Shown here piece after piece: positions 3,009 through 59,104 of a DNA stretch of 64,000 nucleotides; position 1 is the stretch's first letter, and each line of letters starts with the position of its first letter. Source of the DNA: a virus; the IMG/VR virus record IMGVR_UViG_3300030329_006380, positions 1-64,000 of that record; one strand, 5' to 3'. The notes under the pieces are model-generated. The model saw only the letters and a list, made by a program, of their open reading frames with translations, did no database searches and had not been told where the DNA came from. The translations under genes were made by a program, and so were the position numbers.

Positions 3009-3048
3009 TCTGCACTCTCGGTGTTGAGGTTTGTTCCGCGCTCATCCC

Positions 3049-3076
3049 TTAGACGAGCCAGCGAAGAATTTATTCA
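3049..3076 (-). promoter_or_regulatory. Bipartite repeat element copy D (TGAATAA-N14-CGTCTAA)
   Basis: TTAGACG 3049-3055, TTATTCA 3070-3076, 14-nt gap; 41 nt from the methyltransferase start. Confidence 0.7.
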
Positions 3077-11715: not shown

Positions 11716-11750
11716 AAAACCATGTTGTGTATATTATACAACATGGTTTT
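11716..11750. repeat. Perfect 13-bp inverted repeat with 9-nt spacer overlapping the groEL -10 box
   Basis: AAAACCATGTTGT 11716-11728 / ACAACATGGTTTT 11738-11750. Confidence 0.85.
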
Positions 11751-11761
11751 GTAGGTGTCAA
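11733..11761 (-). promoter_or_regulatory. Consensus sigma70 promoter for groEL
   Basis: TTGACA (11756-11761)-N17-TATAAT (11733-11738). Confidence 0.85.
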
Positions 11762-27413: not shown

Positions 27414-27426
27414 CGGCCGACATTAG

Positions 27427-27454
27427 TAAGACGCGTGAATGCAATTTTTATTCA
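27427..27454 (-). promoter_or_regulatory. Bipartite repeat element copy E (TGAATAA-N14-CGTCTTA) upstream of tRNA-Arg
   Basis: TAAGACG 27427-27433, TTATTCA 27448-27454, 14-nt gap; 13 nt before the tRNA 5' end. Confidence 0.65.
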
Positions 27455-29531: not shown

Positions 29532-29555
29532 AAAAAAGGGGGGCTTTCGCCCCCC
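29532..29555 (-). terminator. Intrinsic terminator between ssb and recA
   Basis: GGGGGGC-GAAA-GCCCCCC followed by T6. Confidence 0.85.
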
Positions 29556-29567
29556 TTGGGTTAGGTA

Positions 29568-30305
29568 TTATGTCAACAATTCGTTGAAAGCTTTATCAAT
29601 TGATGAATCCGTGTTGTACTTTGTGGTCTCGGACGAAACCTCTTCAGCACCGTCTTCGGCAAGAAGGAACTCATCAAGCATAGATTGTACCTGTTCAGGT
29701 GTTTTACGCTCAAAGAGCCCAGAGATATCTGGCACAGAGCCCAGCAACTCTTTAGCTAGCTCATTATCTTCTACCATGGGCGAGGGGCGGCGACGAGGGG
29801 TGATCTTCGTCTGAGGGAATGATGCCCCTGCGGGTTTTCCATATTGGAGAACCAAATCAGTGCCACTATCAGCATCGGTAATATCGCCATACTCAGGATT
29901 AAGAACAAGGCCCAGGAGGGTTTCATAGACCTGCTTCCCATATCCCCAAATACGTACACCTTGAGACTCTTCGCCGCGAACAATCACAGGGGAGAAAAAG
30001 CGCTGGCGAGCGGACAAGGATTTAGCCATTTTAATGCTATCCTCAGACTTGTCTTTCCAGAGTTCTTTAACAAACTTATCAAGGGGATCATCCTCTCCAA
30101 AGTTTCTTTTGGGGCTGAGAAATCCGGGATTATCTCCCACATTATAGTGGAACCAATAATCCTTAAAAGGATCTCCATCAGCCGTTGGGACAAGACGAAT
30201 TGTCTGCTCTCCATCGGAAGGGCGCCAGAAGTAACTGCGATTGCCATTACCGCGATTCTTCAAGGCTGCGTACTTAGCTCTCATTTTTTTCATGTCGATA
30301 CCCAT
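29568..30305 (-). CDS. Single-stranded DNA-binding protein (gp32-like)
   Basis: FWRP...TIRLVP...WFHY...SPK...RFFSPVIVRGEE...IWGYGK...YGDITD; acidic C-terminus. Confidence 0.88.
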   Translation of the reverse strand: MGIDMKKMRAKYAALKNRGNGNRSYFWRPSDGEQTIRLVPTADGDPFKDYWFHYNVGDNPGFLSPKRNFGEDDPLDKFVKELWKDKSEDSIKMAKSLSARQRFFSPVIVRGEESQGVRIWGYGKQVYETLLGLVLNPEYGDITDADSGTDLVLQYGKPAGASFPQTKITPRRRPSPMVEDNELAKELLGSVPDISGLFERKTPEQVQSMLDEFLLAEDGAEEVSSETTKYNTDSSIDKAFNELLT

Positions 30306-30330
30306 AATAACCTCCTAAAGTTGTTGGGTT

Positions 30331-30378
30331 GGGTGAAATTACCCTATAGTATGCTTGGCCAATTTCCCAAGCATCTAT
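30331..30378 (-). promoter_or_regulatory. Structured ssb 5' leader (two hairpins with complementary loops)
   Basis: Stem AUGCUUGG/CCAAGCAU with loop GAAAUUGG; stem GGGU/ACCC with loop AAUUUC. Confidence 0.6.
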
Positions 30379-30382
30379 GAGT

Positions 30383-30411
30383 ATTATAGCAAACGATATG
30401 TTCGCTGTCAA
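30383..30411 (-). promoter_or_regulatory. Consensus sigma70 promoter for the ssb-recA operon
   Basis: TTGACA (30406-30411)-N17-TATAAT (30383-30388). Confidence 0.85.
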
Positions 30412-57939: not shown

Positions 57940-59104
57940 TGTTCTTAATTCCTGCTAAAAGTTTCCAACGTTGATAGTTTTTTTGTTCTTCAAGGCTGAG
58001 AGGTTCAATCATGGTTTTTACTTTCGGTCGGTGTGAGGGTGTTGGTGCCTTGCCTTCGTCACCTGTGGATTTCGTTTCTCTAAAGCGTTTGTTTAACATA
58101 TTAATGAACTCTGGGGAAAGGTTCATGGTTTCAGCCGACCGTCTCTTTAACTCTTGGCGCTCGCGGTCTGCCGAAGTTTCTTCCTCCGGTGCAGGTGGAA
58201 CTTCCTGATCTGCTTGAGTCGCGATCTTCTTTTTGTCGCCTGATACGGTGGTCGCGAGTTTAGAGGTATCAATTATTTGTGTTTCAAGATCCTGTGCCGC
58301 AGTGCCCTTAAGCTTGGAGGTATCAATTATTTGTGTTTCAAGATCCTGTGGCACAGCAGGTCTTTGCGCTTGGCGCGCTTTTGCTCGGGCTGTGGCCATG
58401 GCTTTGGATCTCTCCTCCCTAGCTGACGAAAAGGCTGCGGCGCTTTTGTTACGTCGCTTCTGAAATTCTTTTTCGCGGTCGGGCAGACCCAGTGTGTCAA
58501 TTTTATTTTTCGGTACTTGATTCTTAACCAAAAACTTTTTAATTTTTGAAGCTACGCTATTGGTTAATTTATTTTTTATTTTTTCTGGTAGATCAACTGC
58601 ATGGGCTGAAAATACAGTATCGATAATCTTTGATATATCAATATTGCGTTGGGGAGTTTCTCTCTTGGATGTGGGAGCGTCAACATCAAGTTCTTCTTTG
58701 ACGTGAAACGCGTCTCCGAAAATATTTTCATCTTCCAGATAACTGGTCAACTCTTCCCCGATCTTCTCGATAACACTTCGTGATATTTTCCGCGAAGCTT
58801 TTATACCAGCTTTCTGTAAAGTGTAATCTAGATCTGTTTTCATTTTTCTTAAAGCATCGGAGAGGCGAATCTTGCGTCCGGATTTTCTAGGCTGCTCTTC
58901 TGGTGTCTCTTCTGGAGCTTGTTCTGGTGCCTGCGCTGATTGGTCTTCGACCGGAGAATGTCTCTGCTTCCAAGCATCCTTTTTTTCTCGACGGGCGGTA
59001 ACAATATCCTTTGCACGATTGGCAAGATATTCCCTATACCTAGGGGATATATCTTCTTCAAGTACATCAAACTGCTTTGTAATTTTCAACTTCAAAATCT
59101 TCAA
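57932..59104 (-). CDS. Hypothetical protein with internal duplication, possible internal head protein
   Basis: QDLETQIIDTSKL twice; C-terminal RWKLLAGIK. Confidence 0.65.
   Translation of the reverse strand: MKILKLKITKQFDVLEEDISPRYREYLANRAKDIVTARREKKDAWKQRHSPVEDQSAQAPEQAPEETPEEQPRKSGRKIRLSDALRKMKTDLDYTLQKAGIKASRKISRSVIEKIGEELTSYLEDENIFGDAFHVKEELDVDAPTSKRETPQRNIDISKIIDTVFSAHAVDLPEKIKNKLTNSVASKIKKFLVKNQVPKNKIDTLGLPDREKEFQKRRNKSAAAFSSAREERSKAMATARAKARQAQRPAVPQDLETQIIDTSKLKGTAAQDLETQIIDTSKLATTVSGDKKKIATQADQEVPPAPEEETSADRERQELKRRSAETMNLSPEFINMLNKRFRETKSTGDEGKAPTPSHRPKVKTMIEPLSLEEQKNYQRWKLLAGIKNNE
58263..58350. repeat. 34-bp exact direct repeat, period 54 bp
   Basis: GAGGTATCAATTATTTGTGTTTCAAGATCCTGTG at 58263-58296 and 58317-58350. 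Confidence 0.9.

Follow-up and report, generated by a model that had tools for sequence, protein, structure and literature searches.

A covarying 5' leader hairpin, very probably a control element, upstream of gp32-family genes in uncultured marine phages

Introduction

The gp32 proteins of phages T4 and RB69 are proven repressors of their own translation: they nucleate at a structure at the 5' end of the message and extend from there over an unstructured A+U-rich tract that covers the ribosome binding site (RBS). The stable form of the T4 gene 32 message has its 5' end a short distance upstream of this structure (PMC3014915, PMC535899). This message is the most stable of T4 (PMC3014915). Beyond T4 and RB69, gene 32 autoregulation has received hardly any study, and RB49 lacks the pseudoknot, as summarized in a 2010 review (PMC3014915). 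Messages of E. coli can likewise be stabilized by stem-loops at their 5' terminus (Emory et al. 1992, as cited in PMC3997798). A screen published in 2023 listed, from the intergenic regions of IMG/VR, 12 candidate structured RNAs located at most 25 nt upstream of GP32, among them DNAVirus_6622 and DNAVirus_8758, for which GP32 regulation was proposed; copy number, promoter register, a second hairpin and pairing between loops are not treated there motif by motif (PMC10690425).

The locus considered here belongs to IMG/VR record IMGVR_UViG_3300030329_006380, which is derived from a marine phage and has a full length of 136 kb. Positions 1-64,000 of the record were analyzed, and this whole stretch of 64,000 nucleotides is referred to as the window. 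Its leader resembles the T4 operator in overall plan and is built around a different RNA architecture.

Results

The locus and its gp32-family gene

The promoter, both hairpins, the RBS and the gp32 gene all lie on the minus strand of the window (Table 1). Upstream of the gene are a short PolA and an unknown 275-aa gene, and downstream a RecA/UvsX-like gene and a 5'-3' exonuclease gene. The window has no blastn match among cultured phages, and the nearest cultured-phage proteins, from Flavobacterium phage immuto (35%) and Microcystis phage Mel-JY01 (31%), are not close.

The 245-aa product matches Pfam PF08804 (gp32) with an E value of 1.4e-12 and 48.5 bits, against a cut-off of 26.8. While phmmer against PDB sequences retrieved no gp32 with the window protein, a fold search with its AlphaFold model (64 homologues used, pLDDT 87.6) did retrieve, as the best solved matches, the gp32 cores of RB69 (2a1k, E 3e-10) and T4 (1gpc, E 5.7e-10), with TM values of ~0.6-0.68. 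The N-terminal helix is basic and the tail acidic. By its Pfam match and predicted fold, the window single-stranded DNA-binding protein (SSB) is a distant gp32 homologue.

Concerning the zinc site, proteins of the window clade (at least 70% identity) carry S...DPLD at residues ~63-78, the cysteines C/C/C being changed to S/D/D, and relatives at 40-56% identity retain the T4-like ligands H...C...CPxC. As the zinc-ligand cysteines, present in T4 gp32, are lost in the window clade, its nucleic-acid binding may differ. A two-copy gp32 complex prediction gave no answer (score 0.00) and speaks neither for nor against self-association. The RegA family (PF01818) was sought in four genomes with no match, and since the control genomes gave none either, this search is uninformative.

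The window also contains repeats of other kinds. A repeat of ~41 nt ending in TTTTATTCA occurs at 11-51, 748-788, 1646-1687, 3036-3076 and 27414-27454 (direct-repeat families D3 and D9), and two 46-nt direct repeats (family D6), 91% identical and 54 nt apart, lie within 58257-58356.

Table 1. Elements of the gp32 transcription unit, in window coordinates.
Feature	Position	Strand	Description
Sigma-70 promoter	30383..30411	(-)	TTGACA 30411-30406, 17-nt spacer, TG 30391-30390, TATAAT 30388-30383
Putative transcription start	30376	(-)	A of the invariant AG, preceded by Y; placed from promoter geometry
Hairpin 1 (conserved core)	30348..30376	(-)	10 bp, bulged A, 8-nt loop; from fold and covariation
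Hairpin 1, AG	30376-30375	(-)	5' base of stem
Hairpin 1, 5' arm AUGCUUGG	30374-30367	(-)	8-bp arm
Hairpin 1, loop GAAAUUGG	30366-30359	(-)	8 nt
Hairpin 1, 3' arm CCAAGCAU	30358-30351	(-)	8-bp arm
Hairpin 1, bulged A	30350	(-)	unpaired
Hairpin 1, CU	30349-30348	(-)	3' base of stem
Conserved 3' flank (ACU-N-U-A)	30345..30347	(-)	here AUA after CU
Hairpin 2	30331..30344	(-)	GGGU 30344-30341, loop AAUUUC 30340-30335, ACCC 30334-30331
A/C-rich spacer	30317..30330	(-)	predicted mostly unpaired; from sequence and RNAfold
Shine-Dalgarno AGGAGG	30311..30316	(-)	from sequence
gp32-family single-stranded DNA-binding protein gene	29568..30305	(-)	245 aa; ATG 30305-30303; zinc-ligand cysteines absent
Intrinsic terminator-like hairpin and T run	29539..29555	(-)	GGGGGGC GAAA GCCCCCC, directly after the gp32 stop codon

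Layout of the leader

The original prediction described an ssb leader with two hairpins behind a perfect sigma70 promoter, an A/C-rich run leading to AGGAGG, and two loops of complementary sequence, and each of these elements was recovered: the promoter matches the consensus at 12 of 12 positions, RNAfold returns exactly hairpins 1 and 2 for the leader, the A/C-rich run into AGGAGG occupies 30330-30311 on the minus strand, and GAAAUU of the first loop is the exact complement of AAUUUC of the second, giving 6 Watson-Crick pairs. The 48-nt part that holds both hairpins folds with -18.9 kcal/mol (z = -4.69, none of 200 shuffles being as good), and the 88-nt leader has z = -3.47. In the window, stem 1 could be extended by AU/AU (30378-30377 with 30347-30346), and the spacer is broken by hairpin 2, as in its subclade, which leaves it less open than in most relatives.

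Conservation of hairpin 1

A close sample was assembled from 80 viral and 80 metagenome loci with gp32 65-89% identical (85 distinct of 160), and hairpin 1 is present in 160/160 of these loci with upstream sequence. The covariation set comprised 47 distinct 44-nt cores, in which 99.6% of the cells of stem 1 form standard pairs and both partners have changed in a compensatory manner at 8 of the 10 base pairs. The covariation score of 0.739 compares with 0.224 after shuffling and with no more than 0.222 when the pairing partners are slid. RNAalifold independently predicts the identical structure, bulged A included. This covariation shows that hairpin 1 is an RNA structure under selection.

The sequence of stem 1 is freely variable and that of the loop is limited to R-A-N-A-K-U-N-R, where A4 and U6 are invariant and A2 is found in 76 of 77 leaders. 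The bulge is an A in 74/77, and the ACU-N-U-A flank is nearly fixed, with U at +4 in 70/77 and A at +5 in 76/77. Near-invariance of A2, A4 and U6, of the bulged A and of the ACU flank implies recognition by a specific partner.

An inverted repeat occupying +1 to +29 of a strong promoter could also be looked upon as a duplex-DNA operator, to which a dimeric repressor would bind over the start site. Its conservation is the reverse of that of a protein-DNA operator, however, as the arms vary yet stay complementary while the centre is conserved. Moreover, the alignment of hairpin 1 contains 21 G-U cells, which fit a sense-strand RNA and not duplex DNA, since they would be A-C mismatches on the other strand, and the hairpin is retained in relatives that lack the promoter. 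We consider a DNA operator extremely improbable.

The distant sample was obtained with representatives 56% and 48% identical to the window protein as queries. A covariance model of hairpin 1, termed R1, matches at E <=0.01 in 77/85 loci with gp32 ~48-56% identical, and all 77 matches lie on the gene's strand just upstream of the start; a few distant loci show bulged-stem variants and two show nothing. A further query protein, P0139 (42% identity), retrieved no viral locus. Hairpin 1 occurs upstream of zinc-containing and zinc-less gp32 alike. Between hairpin 1 and the ATG, the family-wide spacer has a median length of 27 nt and consists of 50% A and 21% U, and in the predicted ensembles of the family the mean unpaired probability after the ACU flank is 0.80.

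Hairpin 2 and pairing between the loops

Pooling of all loci gave 147 distinct leaders, in 62 of which the G of ACU-N-UAG opens a short GC-rich hairpin, against 6.2 +/- 2.3 after shuffling. The sequences of stem 2 vary by clade: GCC/GGC (24 leaders), GGGU/ACCC with or without an extra U-A pair (16), GAC/GUC (5), GCCA/UGGC (4), GGC/GCC (4), GCU/AGC (3) and GGU/ACC (2). Judged from these leaders, the two-hairpin architecture is real but optional, being present in ~40% of the family.

The complementary loops had originally been taken as a kissing loop or pseudoknot, and the corresponding mechanism would be that this contact, or a pseudoknot of loop 1, forms the functional nucleation site for gp32 as in T4. 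Several features of the window and its relatives speak for such a contact. Considering just the two window loops, 6 Watson-Crick pairs would arise by chance with a probability of 0.1-0.5%; one further lineage (L326) shows a different yet perfect 6-bp match, GAUAUU with AAUAUC; and in leaders with a 6-nt second loop the consensus GA-N-AUU / AAU-N-UC is complementary at 5 fixed positions in two clades that differ in stem 2. Permutation gives p = 0.03 for duplex energy and p = 0.048 for the length of the helix with Watson-Crick and G-U pairs, both uncorrected for kinship.

Over the family, however, the pattern is not maintained. Covariation of the two loops in homologous leaders, a check that the kissing proposal called for, places Watson-Crick pairing at the permuted level: 6 pairs are formed in just 2 of 48 distinct loop combinations, those of the window and of L326 (permuted mean 0.99, P = 0.26 for two or more), such a match being expected about once per 48 combinations from the family's own loop repertoire. 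The means over the 48 combinations are 2.9 Watson-Crick bp and a duplex energy of +0.9 kcal/mol, and for the window duplex the nearest-neighbour energy is only -1.6 to -2.3 kcal/mol. Loop 1 variants (G5/U5) and loop 2 variants (C6/U6) occur in all four combinations. Second loops have just 3-4 nt in 36 of the 62 leaders, in close relatives of the window a stem 2 of 5 bp is capped by a loop of 3-4 nt, and 85 of the 147 leaders have no hairpin 2 at all, with loop 1 equally conserved there. Pairing of loop 1 with the downstream leader is likewise no better in matched (4.34) than in mismatched (4.41) combinations. We therefore regard a kissing or pseudoknotted nucleation site as improbable. In the window, the complementarity has probably arisen as a by-product of having two conserved A/U-rich loops, and not as a required tertiary contact. 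The perfect loop-loop complement, striking in the single sequence, dissolves across relatives, and it is the plainer hairpin 1 that holds the real signal.

Other candidate pairings of loop 1 were tried and rejected. For an H-type pseudoknot between loop 1 and the downstream leader, Watson-Crick permutation gave p values of 0.66-0.75 and no consistent support; the test with Watson-Crick and G-U pairs over all leaders gave p = 0.011, uncorrected for kinship. Between loop 1 and coding sequence near +380, pairing is about the same for matched (3.78) and mismatched (3.82) combinations, the recurrent 6-mers in this region being due to a conserved YETLL peptide. A steric objection to kissing was dropped as well, as the linker is 3 nt with the start placed as in Table 1 and the geometry permits contact.

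Gene specificity and reach

In the 136-kb record R1 has one strong match, before gp32. Five relatives (166-205 kb, three rated 100% complete) likewise have one each, again before gp32; the next-best match in each genome has E >0.6. The pattern AG-N8-GAGAGTTA-N8-ACTTTA, scanned over 2.9 million IMG/VR contigs, gave 68 matches. Those with 7-8 of the 8 N positions paired all lie either at the end of a contig or upstream of a gp32 start, at a distance of 14-26 nt, and the 13 with at most 5 pairs are found elsewhere than gp32, in unrelated sequence.

Outside the family, R1 gave only chance-level matches on the gp32 leaders of T4, of Flavobacterium phage immuto and its IMG/VR relatives, and of Mel-JY01, and Rfam 15 returned for the leader region only chance-level snoRNA matches (E >1). 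In immuto-like Bacteroidetes gp32 loci (L243-L322), the last 60 nt before the ATG are extremely A/U-rich and without the hairpin motif, and in some of these leaders GTTAAATTAAA words recur that are similar to the UUAAA repeats in the operator of T4 gene 32. The gp32-like leader of Mel-JY01 (L161:524-564) can form a 14-bp A/U-rich hairpin with a 13-nt loop, which is non-significant against shuffles (z = -0.59).

Hairpin 1 shows compensatory changes, keeps to one strand and has a constant place with respect to a single gene, as is generally required of a conserved cis-regulatory RNA. The proposal of a structured leader RNA is thereby borne out as far as conservation and specificity for this SSB gene are concerned (covariation, one copy per genome), and hairpin 1 is very probably a control element for gp32.

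Promoter, message ends and their alternatives

The promoter includes the extended -10 TG (TGn), and perfect sigma-70 sites are rare: the 64-kb window contains 2, against 0.18 expected. The other perfect TTGACA-N17-TATAAT, at 11733-11761 (-), is not followed by a hairpin of the R1 type. With 6 nt between TATAAT and A30376, promoter geometry would make this A the +1 of a 71-nt leader. The same register is seen among relatives, where a sigma-70 promoter scoring at least 9/12 is found in 71 of 85 distinct upstream regions and in 55 of these 71 the last base of the -10 hexamer lies 6-7 nt upstream of the A of AG, which would correspond to a start at +1 or +2; the base preceding AG is C or T in 75/77 leaders.

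Hairpin 1 also occurs without a recognizable sigma-70 promoter, as in L002, L020, L072, L178 and L242, the first of which encodes a protein 89% identical to the window gp32. Much of the P0121 clade (L326-L331 and others) likewise keeps hairpin 1 and shows no recognizable sigma-70 promoter, and many promoter-less loci have CCAG ahead of stem 1. Since promoter-less relatives retain it, hairpin 1 would not always be 5'-terminal, unless the RNA is processed; these loci suggest another promoter class, or a longer transcript that is processed at the hairpin.

Downstream of the gene, the terminator of the window separates gp32 from the RecA/UvsX-like gene. Similar hairpins with T runs are found behind gp32 in 33 of 54 distinct relatives, where the stems differ in sequence. 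With hairpin 1 at the head of the message and a terminator after the stop codon, gp32 would often be a monocistronic unit bracketed by two hairpins. Concerning expression, the sequence libraries near the source are DNA contigs only, and one metatranscriptome holds small fragments of relatives; one 151-nt contig of an RNA library spans 30219-30363 and cannot indicate start, strand or expression.

This layout would also suit a hairpin that serves stability or processing only, as a barrier to decay at the 5' end, its loop being read by a host or other phage factor or needed for folding, with no self-regulation by gp32. In most relatives the promoter would set +1 at the base of the hairpin, hairpin and terminator would bracket a monocistronic message, 5' stem-loops are known stabilizers (references in PMC3997798), and the T4 counterpart is a notably stable message. 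A pure stabilizer, on the other hand, would need neither invariant loop bases nor a bulged A, would be expected on other abundant messages as well, whereas there is one copy per genome, and would not account for the hairpin in relatives without the promoter. On balance we hold stabilization alone to be unlikely.

Alternatively, the element could act on transcription: the nascent hairpin or hairpins would alter RNA polymerase, by pausing or by antitermination of the put/nut kind, and so control read-through of the terminator into the RecA/UvsX-like and 5'-3' exonuclease genes. Its place directly after the promoter, the terminator between gp32 and the downstream recombination genes, and the single copy per genome, suited to an operon-specific device, would all agree with such a function. 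It is nevertheless very unlikely, given that no boxA-like or put-like similarity was found and Rfam gave nothing, that 21 of 54 distinct relatives have no terminator in a simple scan, and that the element is retained where a sigma-70 promoter is not seen.

Proposed mechanism

As the element would regulate only gp32, its simplest partner would be gp32 itself, and by analogy with T4 we infer autogenous repression of gp32 through the leader. The reading that we put forward, tentatively and as nearly an even call, gives hairpin 1 a dual role as gp32-specific leader operator and 5' stabilizer. A strong sigma-70 promoter, present in most family members, would start the message at the first base of hairpin 1, so that the message would consist of hairpin 1, an optional short hairpin 2, a mostly unpaired A-rich spacer and the RBS, often with a terminator after gp32. 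Hairpin 1 would shield the 5' end of a message that needs to be abundant and long-lived, and its loop and bulge would offer surplus gp32 a specific landing site, from which the protein could spread cooperatively along the unstructured spacer and block the RBS. Such a leader would do with a hairpin what the autogenous operator of T4 gene 32 does with a pseudoknot. To our knowledge, T4 gp32 is not known to read the sequence of a hairpin loop.

A more far-reaching version, possible and in our estimate somewhat doubtful, is that hairpin 1, with its R-A-N-A-K-U-N-R loop and bulged A, is a sequence-specific high-affinity nucleation site read by both zinc-containing and zinc-less gp32. SSB self-regulation would then have found an RNA solution twice, by independent evolution; this second one would be widespread among uncultured marine phages with a DnaE/mini-PolA replisome and in some lineages, that of the window included, tuned by a loop-loop contact with hairpin 2.

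Comparison with known systems

The closest described system is the gene 32 operator of T4, T2 and RB69. As there, the element lies in the 5' leader of a homologous gp32 gene, is specific to that gene, and combines a structure at the 5' end with an A-rich stretch, mostly unpaired, that leads into the RBS, so that the unstructured tract of the T4-type operator has its equivalent here. The two differ in several respects. The structure is a 10-bp hairpin with a bulged A, a conserved 8-nt loop and an optional hairpin 2, with no H-type pseudoknot; there is no sequence similarity, R1 finding nothing in the T4 leader; the spacer is A-rich (A/C-rich in the window) and without UUAAA repeats; the 5' end is probably set by the promoter and not by RNase E cleavage as in T4; and the gp32 of the window, unlike that of T4, has no zinc ligands. 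Since the pseudoknot that defines T4-type operators was tested for and not found, the hairpin leader, as judged from sequence, parallels the T4 gene 32 operator and is not a member of that class. The notion of an independently built equivalent in a distant phage lineage holds in part: the operator RNA may be independent, but the protein, by Pfam and fold, is a gp32 homologue.

The operator hairpin of T4 gene 43, which encodes the DNA polymerase, has an 8-nt loop. It resembles hairpin 1 in being a hairpin in the leader of a replication protein, with a sequence-specific loop, upstream of the RBS, and differs in that it serves another protein, has a loop with UAAC and a shorter stem, and is not 5'-terminal (PMC3014915). 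The stem-loops of the E. coli ompA and papA messages, as described in the references given in PMC3997798, lie at or within a few nt of the 5' end of an abundant message, as is predicted for hairpin 1; these stabilizers need no conserved loop, whereas hairpin 1 shows conservation of loop, bulge and flank and occurs at a single gene. With the GP32-upstream RNAs of the 2023 screen (PMC10690425), hairpin 1 has in common the IMG/VR source, the position, the proposed role and the absence from Rfam, and it is probably among the 12 published models.

Autoregulation of T4 gene 32 is a textbook case, to which the hairpin family adds a well-defined and abundant second example, with 147 distinct leaders, strong covariation, one copy per genome, a different RNA architecture and both zinc types of gp32.
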